This document shows, one piece after another, positions 15,774 through 63,898 of a stretch of DNA of 64,000 nt. Numbering within the stretch: the stretch's first letter is position 1; every line of letters begins with the position of its first letter. The stretch lies in NCBI GenBank assembly GCA_934501115.1, contig CAKSTO010000001.1, forward strand, positions 2,022 through 66,021, in the 5' to 3' direction. The translations under genes were made by a program, and so were the position numbers. The DNA is from an uncultured Faecalibacterium sp. GTDB taxonomy: Bacteria > Bacillota > Clostridia > Oscillospirales > Ruminococcaceae. The notes below the pieces were generated by a model. That model saw nothing but the letters and a program-made list of their open reading frames with translations, ran no database searches and was not told the origin of the DNA.

Positions 15774-15784
15774 AAAAGCGGGTT

Positions 15785-15926
15785 CGCCCTCTCAGGCTCA
15801 CGTTCGTTCGCCAGCTCCCCCAAAGGGGGGAGCCCTTGGCAAAACCGGAAGGTTTACCGTACTGCCAAGGCCTCTCACTTTGGGAGAGGTGGCACGGCGT
15901 AAGCCGTGACGGAGAGGGCGAGGGCG
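15785..15926 (+). repeat. Copy A of a ~135-140 bp intergenic repeat element with terminal inverted repeats (cgccctctc...gagagggcg) and two internal GC hairpins
   Basis: It shares gctcccccaaaggggggagc and gcctctc...gagaggtggca modules with three other loci in the window (52931-53067, 54375-54507, 61343-61478). Confidence 0.7.
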
Positions 15927-20300: not shown

Positions 20301-22562
20301 TTATTTGCCCAGATGCCAGATGTCGCGGTCATACTCGGCAATGGTGCGGTCAGAGGAGAACATGCCCGCTTTGGCAATGTTTACCAGACACTTGCGCCGC
20401 CAGCCCATGGGGTCGCAGGCGTAATCGCTGAGTGCCTGCCCTTTGCGCACGACGTAGGCGTTGAAGTCCGGCAGGGTCTGGAACCAGTCCTTGTGGATCA
20501 GTTCGTCGTGCAGGCGGGTCAGGTTTTCGGCATGACCGGCGGCCAGCATCTCCGGGCCGGTGAGGAAATCGATGGCGCGGCGGATGTTGGCATCGCCCTC
20601 CACCCACTGTGCGGGGTCGTAGTCGCCCACGGCATAGCGGTGGATGACCTGATCGGAGGTCTGGCCGAAGATATAAATGTTTTCTTCGCCCACCTGCTGG
20701 CTGATCTCCACGTTGGCACCATCCATGGTGCCCAGCGTCAGCGCACCGTTCAGCATGAACTTCATGTTGCCGGTGCCGGAGGCCTCCTTGGAGGCAAGGC
20801 TGATCTGCTCAGACAGGTCACAGGCAGGGATGAGCTTTTCGGCAGCGGTGACGTTGTAATTTTCCACAAATACCACCTGCAGCCACTTGGACACCTCCGG
20901 GTCTGCGGCGATGACCTTGGAGAGGGTCAGCAGGGCATGGATGATGTCCTTTGCAATGATATACGCCGGTGCTGCCTTGGCACCGAAGATGCTCACCAGC
21001 GGTGCGGCAGGCAGATGCCCTGCCTTGATCTCATAATACTGATGGACGAGGTACAGCAGGTTCAGCTGCTGGCGCTTATACTCATGCAGGCGCTTGGACT
21101 GGATGTCGAACACGGCGTCGGTGTTCACGCTCACCTTCTGGGTGCGCAGCAGCCAGTCTGCCAGTGCTTCCTTGTTGGCCTTCTTCACGGCGGTCAGCTC
21201 GCGGAGCACGGTTTCGTCGTCGGCAAAAGCCAGCAGCTTTTCCAGCTCGGCAGCGTCCTTGCGGAATCCGGAGCCGATGTGCTGTTCCAGTGCAGCGGTC
21301 AGGCGCGGGTCGCATTCCAGCAGCCAGCGGCGGAAGGTGATGCCGTTGGTCTTATTGTTGAACTTTTCCGGGTACAGCTCATAGAAGCCGTGCAGCTCGG
21401 AGTTTTTCAGGATCTCGGTGTGCAGCGCCGCTACGCCGTTGGTGGAGTGGGTGAAGTGGATATCCATGTGTGCCATGTGCACCCGGTCGTCCTTGTCGAT
21501 GATGGCAAGGCTCTCGTCCTTGGTGCGGGTGCGAGCCAGCGCATCCAGCTTTTCGATGATGGGCATCAACTTAGGCACCACGGCATCCAGATAGGCGCGA
21601 GGCCACTTTTCCAGCGCCTCGGCCAGAATGGTGTGGTTGGTATAGGCGCAGGTTTTGGTGACGATCTTTACGGCCTCTTCAAACTTGATGCCCTTTTCGC
21701 CCAGCAGACGGATCAGCTCCGGGATGACCATGCTGGGGTGGGTGTCGTTGATCTGGATGGCTGCGTAATCGGCCAGATCGTGATAGTTGCAGCCCCGGGC
21801 TGCGCACTCGGCCAGGATCAGCTGCGCACCGGCGGAGACCATCAGATACTGCTGGTATACCCGCAGACGGCGGCCTGCCTCGTCGGAATCGTCCGGGTAG
21901 AGGAACAATGTCAGATTCTTGTCGATGGCGGTTTTGTCGAAGGCGATGCCGTCATGGACGATGCTCTCGTCGATGGTATCGAGGTCGAACAGGTTCAGGG
22001 TATTGGTGCGGCCTTCGTAGCCGGTGACCGCCAGCTTGTACAGCCGGGCGGTGTACTTCTTGCCGGCCAGCTCCACCGGGTAGGTGGTGTCGGTCTTTTC
22101 TGCCCAGCTGTGGGCGGTGAGCCACGGGTCGGGCTTTTCGTTCTGCACGCCGTTTTCAAAGGACTGATGGAACAGGCCGAAGTGATACCGCAGACCCACA
22201 CCGTCGCCGGGCAGGTTCAGCGTTGCCAGCGAGTCGAGGAAGCAGGCAGCCAGACGGCCAAGTCCGCCGTTGCCGAGAGAAGGTTCCGGCTCTACCTCCT
22301 CGATATCCGAGAGGCGTTTGCCTGCGGCAGCCAGTGCATCGCGAGCCTCGTCATACAGCCCCAGATTGATAAGGTTGTTGGACAGCAGCTTGCCGATGAG
22401 GAACTCGGCACTGATATAATACAGCTTGCGTCCGGTGACCGGCTTCACACGGTCGGCGCTCTTCTGCCGGACAAGCTCCAGCAGGGCAAGATACAGCTCC
22501 TGATCGGTGCAGTCCGCCAGCAGCTTTCCGGTGAGACCCTGTAACGTTTCGGTGAAGTTCAT
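20301..22562 (-). CDS. glgP: Glycogen/maltodextrin phosphorylase (GT35), paralog 1
   Basis: [28 protein letters not shown] is the pyridoxal-phosphate site signature. The start at MNFTE is chosen from a GGAGG RBS. The ORF track extends it to 22622. Confidence 0.9.
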
Positions 22563-52930: not shown

Positions 52931-53067
52931 CTCGCCCTCTCCGTCACGGCTTTGCCGTGCCACCTCTCCCAAAGGGAGAGGCCTTGGCAAAACTGCGGAC
53001 TTTGCCGCACTGCCAAAGGCTTCCCCTTTGGGGGAGCTGACGCCCGTGGGCGGCTGAGAGGGCGAGC
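52931..53067 (-). repeat. Copy B of the intergenic repeat family, inverted relative to copy A
   Basis: Its start cctcgccctctccgtcacgg...gccacctctcccaaagggagaggc is the reverse complement of the end of copy A. It also contains the cccctttgggggagc hairpin. Confidence 0.7.
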
Positions 53068-54283: not shown

Positions 54284-54374
54284 AAAATCTAAAATACTTT
54301 GGGCCATTGCACGGTTTTGTGTAATGGCCTTTTTTATTTGAGCGGAAAATTATTTGAGAGTGATTACGGGATGA

Positions 54375-54507
54375 ACCCTCTCAGTCATCGCTTATGCGAT
54401 GCCAGCTCTCCCGAAGGGCGAGCTTTTGGATGAGCCGGAAAGATTGGCCTTCTCGATAAAGCTCCCCCTTCGGGGGAGCTGCTGAGCGCAGCGAAGCTGA
54501 GAGGGTT
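54375..54507 (-). repeat. Copy C of the intergenic repeat family
   Basis: It has the accctctc...gagaggg termini and the gctcccccttcgggggagc hairpin. Confidence 0.65.
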
Positions 54508-54603
54508 TCTCTATCACTTTTTCGCCTTTACTCTTGACAAACCTGTATCTACTGTATATACTGTACATATACAGACGAAACGCAAGTACCAAAGGAGCAG
54601 CCG

Positions 54604-57418: not shown

Positions 57419-57762
57419 GGGAAAGTCCTCCAGCTGTATTGTTTTGGTTATCTGTATGGTATCACAGGCAGAGCACAGATGCAATATCAAACATGCCAGA
57501 CGATTGGGATGCGCTCCGCTTCCGCTCTGCGCATATACAGAGGAAGAATTATTTTAGATAGAGCAATCCCGGGCAGACTGCGGTCTGCCCGGGATTGCAT
57601 TTTCACGGGAAAGGCCAGGACGGAAAAATGCAGCTTACGGTTCCGACCCTCTGCGTGAAAAAAGGGTTCCAGAAATCCGCAGACTTCTGGAACCCCAATC
57701 TAAAAAATCAAATTTCCGCTGATTATGCGCAGAGCGGAAGCGGAGCGCATTTTAAATTAAAC

Positions 57763-59168: not shown

Positions 59169-59425
59169 GGGTCTCCCTCCTTATGCCCCTATTATAGAGT
59201 ATCCCCCGGGTGGAAGGTCAAGCGTTTTTTGCTGGAACGTTGCGCAGAAAACGAAATAAAGAACAAAATAAATGAAAAGCAGTGCAAGATGTAGTTTGCG
59301 GATACGGCCCTTTGCGTGAAAATGCAACAACGGGCAGCCCGCAGGCTGCCCGTTGTTGCGATAATAAAAGATAAAATTTCCTCTGAATGTGCCCAGAGCG
59401 AACGCGGCGGGCATTCAAATCGTTT

Positions 59426-61342: not shown

Positions 61343-61478
61343 TTTTTTAGCAAACCCTCTCAGGCTGCCTTCGGCATCCAGCTCCCCCGAGGGGGGAGCT
61401 TTTTGCAAGAGAGGGAAACTTTCAGGGAAGAACTCTTAAACCTCGCCCTTCGGGAGAGGTGGCATTGCGTAGCAATGA
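61343..61478 (+). repeat. Copy D of the intergenic repeat family, in the same orientation as copy A
   Basis: It reads aaccctctcaggct...cagctcccccgaggggggagc...cctcgcccttcgggagaggtggca...gacggagaggg. A GC hairpin plus T-run terminator lies adjacent at ~61301-61335 on the minus strand. Confidence 0.7.
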
Positions 61479-61492
61479 CGGAGAGGGTTTTC

Positions 61493-63898
61493 TTACTTGC
61501 CCATGGGCACCGGGGAAGCGTACCAGATATCGTGTGCGTAATCCAGCACAGAGCGGTCGGCGCTGAAGATGCCGCTGTTGGCAATGTTCTTCAGGCTCAT
61601 GTGTGCCCACTTCTCGCGGTCAGCATACAGCTTCTGCAGGTCGGCCTGTGCGCGGCGGTAATCCTTGAAGTCGGCCATGACCATATACGGGTCGCTGCTG
61701 CGCAGGTTCTCGGTCACTTCGTGGAAGTTCTCGCCGTTCCAGCCGCGCTCCAGGAAGTTCAGAGCGTTGTTGGCAACATCGTCGCCCATGATGAAGGCGT
61801 TGGGGTGGTAGCCCACCTGCTTGAGGTTGTTCACCTCGGGGGTCAGCATACCGAAGATCAGCTCGTTCTCCTTGCCGGCAGCGTCTGCGATCTCCACGTT
61901 TGCGCCGTCCAGAGTGCCCAGAGTGATAGCGCCGTTCAGCATGAACTTCATATTGCCGGTACCGGAAGCCTCGGTGCCTGCCAGAGAGATCTGCTCAGAG
62001 ACCTCGGCAGCGGGCATCAGATGCTCGCTCAGAGAGACGCAGTACTCTTCCAGATAGACCACGCGCAGCTTGTCGCGCACGGCGGGGTCGTTATTGATGA
62101 GGTCGCCCAGCTTGCAGATCATGCGGATCATCTGCTTTGCCATGTAGTAGCCGGGGGCAGCCTTTGCACCGAAGATATAGGTCTTGGGGATGAAGTCGGC
62201 GTTGGGGTTTTCCTTCAGGTACAGGTACTGGGCAGCGATGTTCAGCGCGTTCAGGTGCTGGCGCTTGTACTCGTGCATACGCTTGACCTGGCAGTCAAAG
62301 ATGGAGTTCGGGTCGATGACCTGACCGGTGCTCTTTGCCAGATAGCTGGCAAAGCTGGTCTTGTTCGCCAGTTTGATCTCGTTCAGGCGCTTGAGAACGG
62401 TCTTGTCATTCTCGAACTTGTTCAGCTTGGACAGGTCGGCGGCATCGTGCTTGTAGCCGTCGCCGATGGTCTCATCCAGCAGCTTGCACAGGCCGGGGTT
62501 AGAGGCCAGCAGCCAGCGGCGGTAAGCGATGCCGTTGGTCACGTTCTTGAAGGCCTGCGGCTTGAACAGGTAGTAATCGTGGAAGACGCTGTCCTTGATG
62601 ATCTCGCTGTGCAGCTTGGACACGCCGTTGATGCTGTTGGCGGTGTAGGCGCAGATGTTTGCCATGCGCACCTGATTGTCGCCGATCAGTGCCATATAGT
62701 CGATCTTGCCCTTGTCGCCGGGGAATGCCTTCTCCAGCTCAGCGCGGGCACGGCGATCCATCTCGACCACGATCTGGTAGATGCGGGGCAGGGTCATCTT
62801 GAAGATGTCCACATTCCACTTTTCCAGAGCCTCAGCCATGACGGTGTGGTTGGTGTAGGAGAAGACCTTCTGGCAGATGCTGAAAGCCTTGTCCCAGCCA
62901 AAGCCGCACTCATCCAGCAGGATGCGCATCATTTCGGGGATGGCCAGAGTCGGATGGGTATCATTCAGCTGGATAGCGACCTTGTCAGGCAGGTTCTCCA
63001 GAGTGGCATAGCTGGACAGGTGGTTCTGGACGATATCGCCGATGGATGCAGCAGACAGGAAATACTGCTGGCGCAGACGCAGGATCTTGCCCTCGACATG
63101 GTTGTCGTTGGGGTACAGCACCTTGGAGATCAGCTCGGCATTGGCATTTTTGCTCATGGCCGTGTTGTAGTTGCCCAGAGAGAAGCTGGACATATCGAAG
63201 TCAGGAGCCTTTGCCTGCCACAGACGCAGCTTGGCAACACCCTTTCCGTCGTAGCCCTGCACATACATATCGGAGGGAACAGCCATGACGCTGTTGTAGT
63301 TGGTGTGCTGGATGTAGTGGAAGCCGTTGTCCCAGTTCTCGTGGATCTCGCCGTCAAAGCGGACTTCCACGGCCTGATCGGGGTGGCTCTTCAGCCAGAC
63401 CTGACCGCCGGGCAGCCAGTTGTCGGCACGCTCCTGCTGCCAGCCGTCCACGATCTTCTGTTTGAAGATGCCGTATTCATACAGGATGGAGTATCCGGTG
63501 CCGCAGATGCCAGTGGTGGCCATGCCGTCCAGATAGCAGGCAGCCAGACGACCCAGACCGCCGTTGCCCAGACCTGCATCCGGCTCTTCCTCAAAGATAC
63601 TGTCAATGCTGATGTCGGCGTCAGACAGAGCCTTCTTTGCCACCTCGTCCAGACCCAGATTCAGCAGGCTGGTCTTCAGGCTGCGACCCATCAGGAACTC
63701 CATGCAAAGGTAGTAGACCTGCTTGGTGCCGGTGCCGATGGCCTTGGACTGGAACTTTTTGTGGTTTTCGCTCATCATCTGGCGGCAGATCAAAGCCAGA
63801 GAACGGTAAATCTGCTGGTTGGAGGCAACGCTCAGCTCAACGCCGTACTCGCTGGTGAGCTTGTCCTGAAGAATTTTGCCAAATTCCTTCGATGTCAT
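61493..63898 (-). CDS. glgP: Glycogen/maltodextrin phosphorylase (GT35), paralog 2
   Basis: [28 protein letters not shown] is the PLP-site signature. The protein is 801 aa and sits directly upstream of the GH13 gene on the same strand. Confidence 0.9.
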   Translation of the reverse strand: MTSKEFGKILQDKLTSEYGVELSVASNQQIYRSLALICRQMMSENHKKFQSKAIGTGTKQVYYLCMEFLMGRSLKTSLLNLGLDEVAKKALSDADISIDSIFEEEPDAGLGNGGLGRLAACYLDGMATTGICGTGYSILYEYGIFKQKIVDGWQQERADNWLPGGQVWLKSHPDQAVEVRFDGEIHENWDNGFHYIQHTNYNSVMAVPSDMYVQGYDGKGVAKLRLWQAKAPDFDMSSFSLGNYNTAMSKNANAELISKVLYPNDNHVEGKILRLRQQYFLSAASIGDIVQNHLSSYATLENLPDKVAIQLNDTHPTLAIPEMMRILLDECGFGWDKAFSICQKVFSYTNHTVMAEALEKWNVDIFKMTLPRIYQIVVEMDRRARAELEKAFPGDKGKIDYMALIGDNQVRMANICAYTANSINGVSKLHSEIIKDSVFHDYYLFKPQAFKNVTNGIAYRRWLLASNPGLCKLLDETIGDGYKHDAADLSKLNKFENDKTVLKRLNEIKLANKTSFASYLAKSTGQVIDPNSIFDCQVKRMHEYKRQHLNALNIAAQYLYLKENPNADFIPKTYIFGAKAAPGYYMAKQMIRMICKLGDLINNDPAVRDKLRVVYLEEYCVSLSEHLMPAAEVSEQISLAGTEASGTGNMKFMLNGAITLGTLDGANVEIADAAGKENELIFGMLTPEVNNLKQVGYHPNAFIMGDDVANNALNFLERGWNGENFHEVTENLRSSDPYMVMADFKDYRRAQADLQKLYADREKWAHMSLKNIANSGIFSADRSVLDYAHDIWYASPVPMGK

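Follow-up and report, generated by a model that had tools for sequence, protein, structure and literature searches.

Inverted triplex-motif modules in intergenic spacers of Faecalibacterium and their association with DUF559 nuclease genes

Repeats of the BoxC/PIT (potential intrastrand triplex)/triplex-motif (TM) type were already known in the 1990s; they are present in hundreds of genomes, where they mark hypervariable loci. The systems formed by REPINs and RAYT are described as being mostly inherited vertically within lineages. The subject here is a palindromic intergenic element present in four copies (c1 to c4) in 64,000 nucleotides of an uncultured Faecalibacterium sp. (assembly GCA_934501115.1, contig CAKSTO010000001.1, positions 2,022 to 66,021; this whole 64-kb stretch is called the window), together with DUF559, a large protein family with almost no assigned function whose genes adjoin related elements at other loci. 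The feature of the window is real: it is a triplex-motif repeat of the BoxC/PIT type whose linker bears a hairpin, and each of the four copies is an inverted pair. Repeats of this type, their palindromic pairs and their instability are already published; the new part, which deserves follow-up, is the association with DUF559. BoxC/PIT/TM repeats (TMECO) have been described from E. coli, cyanobacteria, Neisseria and other hosts, in an account that leaves Firmicutes unmentioned; they occupy hypervariable loci, form palindromic pairs with centre deletions and have never been found near remnants of a transposase or integrase (PMC4666352). The TM definition, as used in ITxF, allows connecting loops of 1-6 nt (PMC4666352). 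CGTC-tagged repetitive extragenic palindromes (REPs), according to their description, "lack a dedicated transposase", and have been reported from Proteobacteria, Chlorobi, Bacteroidetes, Spirochaetes and Thermotogae (Di Nocera et al. 2013, PMC3733652).

Alignment of the four stretches showed c1-c4 to be related copies of 130-138 bp each, with exactly four in the window. The best alignment was obtained with c1 and c4 in plus and c2 and c3 in minus orientation, c3 being best registered as the reverse complement. A covariance model of the half-element, trained on 136 half-elements, detected in the 64 kb eight modules of ~51 nt (E 7e-15 to 5e-08) that make up four inverted pairs, and gave no other convincing match. 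The sequence CCCTCTCAG occurs five times in the window, against 0.65 expected. The original prediction, which described four related intergenic copies belonging to a dispersed, palindromic, REP-like family with members in both orientations, is supported by the alignment and by the modules of the covariance model. The termini (a/c)CCCTCTC...GAGAGGG, the GCTCCCCC-loop-GGGGGAGC hairpin and the CCTCTC..GAGAGG(TGGCA) hairpin that it listed were each found, and its placement of the copies after alaS, dapF, dapL and a glgP paralogue was confirmed by Pfam. The extents of all four copies were refined; that given for c4 (61343-61478) had been set ~10 nt leftward, with left flank included and the right terminus GGAGAGGG (61480-61487) missed. 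The family is neither restricted to these copies and devoid of conserved termini nor a 3′ untranslated region (UTR) motif specific to these genes.

In every module the terminal CCCTCTC is followed by (A/C)G, by a small hairpin that varies in length and sequence, by CAG and then by a conserved hairpin, for instance GCTCCCCC-NNN-GGGGGAGC or CCTCTCCC-TTTG-GGGAGAGG. On the purine strand, the terminal block reads as a mirror of the conserved hairpin's purine arm (arm GGGAGAGG and block GGAGAGGG, for example). A module of triplex type, such as CCTCTCCC-TTTG-GGGAGAGG-linker-GGAGAGGG, comprises in turn a pyrimidine arm, a loop, a purine arm, a linker and a mirror-image third block. Each element is an imperfect palindrome of two inverted modules around a variable centre, often with a hairpin of its own, and as a whole is able to fold into a long hairpin or cruciform. 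A strict motif finder, which required pyrimidine arm, loop, purine arm and mirror third block and permitted a linker of ≤40 nt, matched only c1 (15871-15918), c2 (52935-52981) and c4 (61441-61487) in the window and nothing in shuffled sequences; the c3 modules do not satisfy this rule, and the left-type modules show a mirror agreement of 6/7. Across 11 lineages the third block is a perfect mirror of the local purine arm in nine. The mean mirror score is 0.97 within the own lineage and 0.70 across lineages, and none of the 108 cross pairs (0/108) reaches the own-lineage mean. By sequence design, each module is consequently a G/C-rich intrastrand-triplex motif of the BoxC/PIT/TM type, with the c3 modules falling short of the strict rule. 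The elements share with described triplex motifs that they are multi-copy and intergenic, occur in either orientation and lie in hypervariable loci. Given the mirror design and the matches of the strict finder, what had been taken for the terminal inverted repeats of a MITE (miniature inverted-repeat transposable element) is better understood as the blocks that supply the third strand in two inverted motifs. The elements and their modules are as follows.

15784-15921, no strand assigned: c1, inverted doublet, between the alaS stop (15773) and the start of the HIT gene (15957)
15785-15838, plus strand: c1 left module, 54.8 bits with the covariance model, E 7.8e-13; parts are CCCTCTC at 15787-15793, the variable linker hairpin region at 15796-15811 and the hairpin GCTCCCCC-AAA-GGGGGGAGC at 15814-15833
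15866-15920, minus strand: c1 right module, 36.5 bits, with the strict triplex motif at 15871-15918; parts are CCTCTCAC at 15871-15878, GGGAGAGG at 15882-15889, the CACGGC-GTAA-GCCGTG linker hairpin at 15893-15908 and the mirror GGAGAGGG at 15911-15918
52932-53065, no strand assigned: c2, inverted doublet, between the dapF stop (52920) and the start of the dapL-type gene (53096)
52933-52986, plus strand: c2 module of the CCTCTCCC/GGGAGAGG type, 47.1 bits, with the strict triplex motif on the minus strand at 52935-52981
53014-53064, minus strand: c2 module of the CTCCCCC/GGGGGAG type, 62.5 bits, E 7.3e-15
54374-54507, no strand assigned: c3, inverted doublet, 3′ of the dapL terminator (54301-54330) and 5′ of the GntR gene promoter (54534-54562)
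54374-54428, plus strand: c3 module, 53 bits, with a CAGCTCTCCC-GAA-GGGCGAGC hairpin and a CATCGC-TTAT-GCGATG linker hairpin
54456-54507, minus strand: c3 module, 57.1 bits, with a GCTCCCCC-TTCG-GGGGAGC hairpin
61353-61489, no strand assigned: c4, inverted doublet, bounded by the stop of the glycogen phosphorylase gene (61493, minus) and that gene's terminator (61335-61308, minus)
61353-61404, plus strand: c4 module of the CTCCCCC/GGGGGAG type, 56.8 bits
61436-61489, minus strand: c4 module, 37.9 bits, with the strict triplex motif at 61441-61487; parts are CCTCGCCC, GGGAGAGG and the mirror GGAGAGGG, with the linker hairpin CATTGC-GTA-GCAATG

Elsewhere, the modules are physically associated with DUF559 genes, which they flank at each of the Clostridia loci inspected, and across eight distinct Clostridia gene contexts the module sequence changes with the protein clade. 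Among the genome loci listed, the only gene enclosed by a wide module pair encodes a protein of ~120 aa (locus L115), assigned to Pfam DUF559 with E 1e-28 to 1e-30; a DUF559 gene lies next to modules in L063 and L095 too. Loci of clade 1 were fetched by protein similarity alone, so that modules had no part in the choice of locus, and in 40/40 of them modules flank the gene. The Faecalibacterium contexts of this clade are three, namely DUF711-spoIIR, the bacteriocin-export locus of LcnD and the anti-inflammatory protein MAM, and hsdR. At the MAM locus of F. prausnitzii (L225-L229, L235-L239), two or three near-identical doublets are arrayed upstream of the DUF559 gene, with an N-gap inside the array of one scaffold and a second DUF559 copy in L226; at hsdR the gene and its modules are tandemly duplicated as a unit. 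Clade 2, which is 48% identical to clade 1, was examined in the contexts prfA-tsaE, femAB, CODH/ACS and TPR-GHMP kinase. Its gene adjoins inverted modules in 4/4 of these and is bracketed by them in 3/4. The clade 2 module keeps the architecture with a changed sequence, CACCTCATC(A/C)G-hairpin-CAGCTTCTCCT-NNN-GGAGAAGC, and is reversed in orientation, its termini facing the gene.

Outside Clostridia, strict triplex motifs were found at 10/13 DUF559 loci of Proteobacteria and Deinococcota, drawn from a plasmid collection that includes mislabelled chromosomes, and at none in shuffles. The ten are those of N. gonorrhoeae, A. lipoferum, S. meliloti, Shinella, Methylobacterium, Sphingomonas, Photobacterium, two Deinococcus and E. 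coli ycjD. When the surrounding 50 kb were considered, three of the seven motifs of S. meliloti lay ≤110 nt from the gene, and three of the four of D. aetherius ≤15 nt. In E. coli the BoxC-like repeat occupies a median of 16 places per genome (5426 genomes); the stop codon of ycjD lies inside a BoxC remnant, with a full copy ~190 nt downstream, which suggests a repeat-associated rearrangement at the 3′ end of ycjD. The PD-(D/E)xK/Vsr-type residues D56, E67-x-D69 and H73 are invariant in 11 DUF559 proteins, and among solved structures the nearest is that of the DUF559 protein of N. gonorrhoeae, 3HRL. Two further observations concern ycjD. In E. coli K-12 (L384, NC_000913.3 1350900-1352300, ~440-590), the last ~45 nt of the gene (GGAGACGGTGCTGGAGAATATTC...CTGAACC) are repeated ~70 nt downstream. 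Just 5′ of the gene (L371 and L384) there is a perfect hairpin, CACCTCATTCTGACAA...TTGTCAGAATGAGGTG, whose ends resemble the clade 2 sequences CACCTCATC and GATGAGGTG; it may be the sapF terminator, with the resemblance due to chance.

Two facts have appeared in the literature without comment on repeats: in F. prausnitzii mam has a DUF559 gene next to it, and in E. coli ycjD and eefRABCD are alternative alleles. No paper tying DUF559 or ycjD to BoxC/PIT/REP repeats was found in the literature covered, which is incomplete, so that this is absence of evidence only. The Caulobacter DUF559 protein VsrA drives the SOS DNA-damage response in vivo, for which its authors propose DNA breaks, without demonstration (PMC12907096).

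The family is widely distributed. A stringent pattern scan of one genome per species gave at least 119 genome loci, among the matches listed mostly from Faecalibacterium, Oscillospiraceae and other metagenome-assembled genomes of Clostridia, largely of the gut; a few records carry the labels Veillonellaceae, Phascolarctobacterium, Duodenibacillus, "Bacteroides sp. CAG:545" and Chloroflexi, as given in the records. A hidden Markov model counted at least 250 modules in the genome loci, of which at least 48 convergent pairs were formed, mostly of 120-160 bp, with at least 162 modules unpaired. The same pattern scan found at least 120 viral-contig loci with at least 278 modules; among the contigs there may be prophages that carry flanks of their host. 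The collections hold singlets, inverted pairs of either relative orientation, compact pairs and tandem arrays, and the window inverted pairs only. One IMG/VR contig (L298; 1692-2072, 4558-4672 and 6449-6903) has same-orientation tandem arrays in which as many as six modules follow one another at a 67-nt period, and a compensatory change from C-G to T-A in the linker hairpin distinguishes adjacent units. Modules were also seen within the annotated N-terminal region of type I restriction hsdR open reading frames (ORFs), apparently in frame (L095, 2490-2538; L231-L233, ~1619-1712), where they resemble the intragenic REP/RPE insertions of other bacteria.

Comparison of strains shows that the element decays and rearranges quickly via deletion between its internal repeats. 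The dapF-dapL spacer was compared in eighty orthologous loci, in which those of Faecalibacterium type are 94-98% identical. Its states are an empty spacer of 28 nt, a different hairpin without the element, a stub made of a terminus only, half-elements, a compact form, the full form and the variant of the window. The compact form, of 83 bp, is a pair with a single shared central hairpin, and differs from the full form by a deletion of ~52 nt between the AGCTC(T/C)CCC repeats of the two conserved hairpins. 3′ of dapL, most strains have the terminator alone and the window has c3 beyond it; in four other strains an element of a different subfamily lies between the dapL stop codon and the terminator, an independent event. 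An association with rearrangement, which the original prediction had raised, is therefore borne out by orthologous spacers that vary in presence or absence, half-elements and internal deletions. 3′ of dapL, at the site that c3 occupies in the window, two strains (L174 and L192) have another modular hairpin repeat, GCGGTTGCGTCAGCAAC-AAAAGCCCCAGTGGGGCTTTT-...-CTTGCGCAGCAAG-TGGAGGGGCCTCGCCCC, which is single in one of them and present as two tandem copies in the other.

No target-site duplication (TSD) accompanies the elements. In 44 doublets, the lengths of direct repeats equalled those of a shuffled control, and comparison of filled and empty sites gave no clean duplication; the L180 spacer is empty, with flanks too diverged for the junctions to be defined, and neither c2 nor c3 has a clean empty site. 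Complementarity past CCCTCTC extends for only 2-3 nt and reflects two subfamilies, tcg/cga and aa/tt. Two loci are exceptions (L007, 4754-4905; L011, 5475-5620), in that palindromy runs 16-25 nt past the conserved termini into otherwise unique flank. This extended symmetry might have arisen when the element inserted into a hairpin already present, or when template switching produced an inverted duplication.

The linker hairpin varies freely in sequence while its pairing is strictly Watson-Crick. All four Watson-Crick pair types occur at three stem positions in a set of 136 modules, each position having 45-58 double changes and 0-2 single-side changes, with 3 G-U cells; shuffled and slid controls scored far lower. 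In 405 hairpins (from 468 parsed distinct modules), 2364 pairs were Watson-Crick and 20 were G-T (0.8%). The tag of the hairpin is AGTC in 65%, CGTC in 14% and AGGC in 13%, and its tail CCA in 55% and ACA in 42%. Such strict pairing indicates a palindrome at the level of DNA and argues against a selected RNA fold, which is unlikely for these elements.

The elements behave as a DNA-level selfish or structural repeat built of inverted triplex-motif modules, which is probably propagated or maintained by a DUF559 endonuclease. On this proposal a structure- or sequence-specific endonuclease of Vsr-like PD-(D/E)xK type would serve the family as RAYT serves REP/REPIN. The nuclease gene would be embedded between or beside its cognate modules, and the four copies of the window would be gene-less derivatives. 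DUF559 would recognise the extruded module and nick or cut there, and repair synthesis or recombination after the cut would copy, convert or delete modules. If hairpins, once extruded, were attacked by a Vsr-like mismatch nuclease and then repaired from the opposite arm, this would explain why stems are altered on both sides together. The window copies themselves are most likely passengers of the alaS-HIT, dapF-dapL, dapL-gntR and glgP 3′ spacers, either neutral or mildly destabilising, although c2, which lies 30 nt 5′ of the dapL start in a likely operon, may affect expression. A broader idea, to be held rather more tentatively and at somewhat less than even confidence, is that throughout Bacteria DUF559 is the long-missing dedicated partner of BoxC/PIT/triplex-motif repeats and perhaps also of CGTC-tagged REPs. 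A second REP-RAYT-like symbiosis, independent of HUH transposases, would then exist, in which a small nuclease embedded among its own repeats recognises a hairpin/mirror-repeat structure in DNA and brings about the copying, deletion and conversion of the repeats, the last seen in the strictly Watson-Crick compensatory stems; if true, DUF559 would generate the genomic instability reported at triplex motifs.

Several points weigh against the main proposal, some of them touching the triplex motif and others the nuclease. Mirror covariation within the family is significant but tiny (0.78 vs 0.75), since the family is nearly monomorphic in the blocks concerned, and the cross-lineage test was used for that reason. 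The hairpin loop has 3-4 nt, but the second linker has 20-21 nt and an extra, variable hairpin of its own, beyond the 1-6 nt by which BoxC/PIT/TM repeats are defined (connecting loops of 0-10 nt are reportedly accepted by Hoyne et al.). Moreover, Holder et al. (2015) observed no stable triplex in duplex DNA or in vivo (PMC4666352). At 3/13 of the DUF559 loci outside Clostridia there was no strict motif, and neither the window nor 1.1 Mb of viral loci contains a DUF559 gene, so that the partner of the four copies is assumed to lie elsewhere in the genome. The activity of DUF559 on module DNA, and with it the role of cognate enzyme, is proposed from the association. A nuclease of 120 aa is not by itself known as a transposase. 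Orthologous DUF559 genes are syntenic and vertically inherited, and the gene itself is thus not obviously mobile. Finally, the association could reflect a DUF559 that parasitises the repeats, or repeats that accumulate in unstable spacers.

The first of these possibilities is the main rival, in which DUF559 is a selfish gene akin to a homing endonuclease that resides within the repeats, targets the centre or junction of a pair and does not mobilise modules; these would spread by another route, for example through slippage during replication, template switching, recombination or transfer by phages. DUF559 and Vsr are placed in one clade, which also contains a group I intron homing endonuclease (PMC3424549). 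At DUF711-spoIIR the gene occupies precisely the spacer between the two members of an inverted pair, and in clade 2 it lies between facing termini, with a gene-less pair with a 25-nt spacer nearby. The number of DUF559 copies differs among strains at the MAM and hsdR loci, and the alternative alleles ycjD and eefRABCD also agree with such a gene. Homing predicts sporadic presence and decay, however; the genes of the Faecalibacterium lineages are intact and syntenic and have diverged in place (76-99% identity). Among the loci recovered there was no allele lacking DUF559 with an intact pair at the same site, and the rival is silent on how modules reach new sites. It is judged unlikely, even though the two readings, one with DUF559 driving the repeats and the other with a selfish gene among them, are not separated by the data.

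Movement by a transposase encoded elsewhere in the genome, with the elements as classical MITEs or RAYT-dependent REPINs, is decidedly improbable. The terminal inverted repeats (CCCTCTC/GAGAGGG with 2-3 further complementary nt, giving 7-10 nt in two subfamilies), the size (mode 120-160 bp), the occurrence of inverted doublets together with singlets, as in REPINs, and the polymorphism in presence or absence would all suit it, and the (A/C)GTC-tagged, CCA-tailed linker hairpin resembles the CGTC-tagged REPs of Di Nocera 2013. The mirror rule, however, accounts for the conserved termini. All-against-all clustering of 2583 ORFs from the 119 loci, among the matches listed, gave no recurrent transposase but only housekeeping families and DUF559, and this result, with the lack of a TSD in 44 elements, indicates that the family is not a classical MITE, contrary to the MITE-like reading first suggested. 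A cognate TnpA-REP/RAYT, which had also been envisaged, was not seen, as no gene for a Y1 transposase occurs in the loci examined; the recurrent neighbour, and the gene that is flanked, is that of the DUF559 nuclease. Nor is there a GTAG tetranucleotide, as in REP/REPIN; the tags are AGTC, CGTC and AGGC instead.

Least probable, and by a small measure the more doubtful, is selection of a structured RNA in transcripts, whether as 3′-UTR stabiliser, terminator or translational regulator acting through Shine-Dalgarno (SD) and anti-SD pairing. The predicted RNA folding is very stable (z -5.7 to -8.7 for c1-c3, weaker for c4), c1, c2 and c4 lie within likely transcripts, and the blocks are SD-like and anti-SD-like, the clade 2 terminal GATGAGGTG being 5-10 nt upstream of the DUF559 start. 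Against this, only 0.8% of stem pairs are G-T, only c1 is sense to its upstream gene, with c2, c3 and c4 antisense, and no match to an Rfam family was obtained at gathering thresholds for the window and two loci; an E-value search of Rfam with c2-c3 gave only sub-threshold hits, to miRNA hairpin models and the small-RNA family Whalefall-1. The element hairpins lack T-runs on the transcribed strand, which intrinsic terminators have, and canonical terminators adjoin c3 (54301-54330) and c4 (61335-61308), so that the elements are not the terminators and the terminator role once proposed for them falls away. The elements are missing from most orthologous spacers, they form tandem arrays in viral contigs and lie inside ORFs, and PIT elements showed neither promoter nor terminator activity (cited in PMC4666352). 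Integron attC-like cassettes were dropped, as there is no integrase, and so were CRISPR-like arrays, since arrays such as that of L298 have a 67-nt period and no spacers.

The genes around the four elements were assigned by Pfam. They run alaS, c1, HIT; dapF (DAP epimerase), c2, the dapL-type aminotransferase, its terminator, c3 and a GntR regulator; and, on the minus strand, glycogen phosphorylase, c4, a terminator and an alpha-amylase-domain gene. The DapL protein of the window has an exact match on a Hadza gut metagenome contig too. Two glycogen-phosphorylase paralogues are present (20703-22305 and 61889-63599, ~70-76% DNA identity over several segments), which fits the earlier designation of a glgP paralogue. 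The window also has inverted repeats unrelated to the modules, one of 47 nt (57509-57555 and 57704-57750, 85% complementary, 148 nt apart) and one of 74 nt (57563-57636 and 59286-59359, 73%), as well as a strong terminator-like hairpin at 57696-57663.

The association of modules with DUF559, from Clostridia to Proteobacteria and Deinococcota, provides a testable hypothesis both for the spread of the repeats and for the function of DUF559. In Faecalibacterium, a key gut commensal, the repeats explain strain-level variation of spacers inside biosynthetic operons and form arrays in the MAM locus. Many DUF559-encoding metagenome contigs are only 0.5-2 kb long, as expected if flanking repeats break short-read assemblies, and these very short contigs suggest that the repeats fragment metagenome assemblies. 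The copies in viral contigs may help to link phages to their hosts.

When the described systems are compared in turn, the MITEs Correia, ERIC and RUP share with the present elements the size, terminal inverted repeats, the potential to form a long hairpin and a location that is intergenic or co-transcribed, but here there is neither a TSD nor a cognate insertion sequence, and the termini obey a mirror rule with the internal hairpin. With the CGTC-tagged REPs the elements have in common the (A/C)GTC tag, the short stem-loop, the CCA/ACA tail, the predominance of head-to-head dimers and the existence of intragenic copies. This is a likeness by description: the tagged hairpin is here one part of a larger module, and its stem is hypervariable and 4-10 bp long, whereas that of the CGTC REPs is conserved at 8-9 bp.

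BoxC/PIT/TM repeats share the three-block design of a pyrimidine/purine hairpin and a mirror block, the intergenic location without strand bias, palindromic pairs with centre deletions, the hypervariable loci and the lack of a transposase nearby, and in E. coli a BoxC-like copy stands beside ycjD. The dynamics seen here match those of the E. coli TM loci of Holder et al. Apart from the linker, the differences lie in the sequences of the blocks, in the inverted pair of 120-160 bp that is the usual form in the window and at most Faecalibacterium loci, and in the association with DUF559, which is absent from the account of Holder et al. (PMC4666352).

The REP/BIME/REPIN-RAYT systems also consist of a short palindromic unit that occurs as singlets, head-to-head or tail-to-tail pairs and clusters, without a TSD and with compensatory changes in the stems. 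In both cases one small nuclease gene is embedded in its own repeats and inherited vertically, and the sequence of the repeat follows the clade of the protein. The nuclease is here a Vsr-like PD-(D/E)xK protein of the DUF559 family rather than an HUH Y1 transposase, the GTAG tag is replaced, and the module is larger, contains a mirror repeat and is spread over many families and viral contigs.

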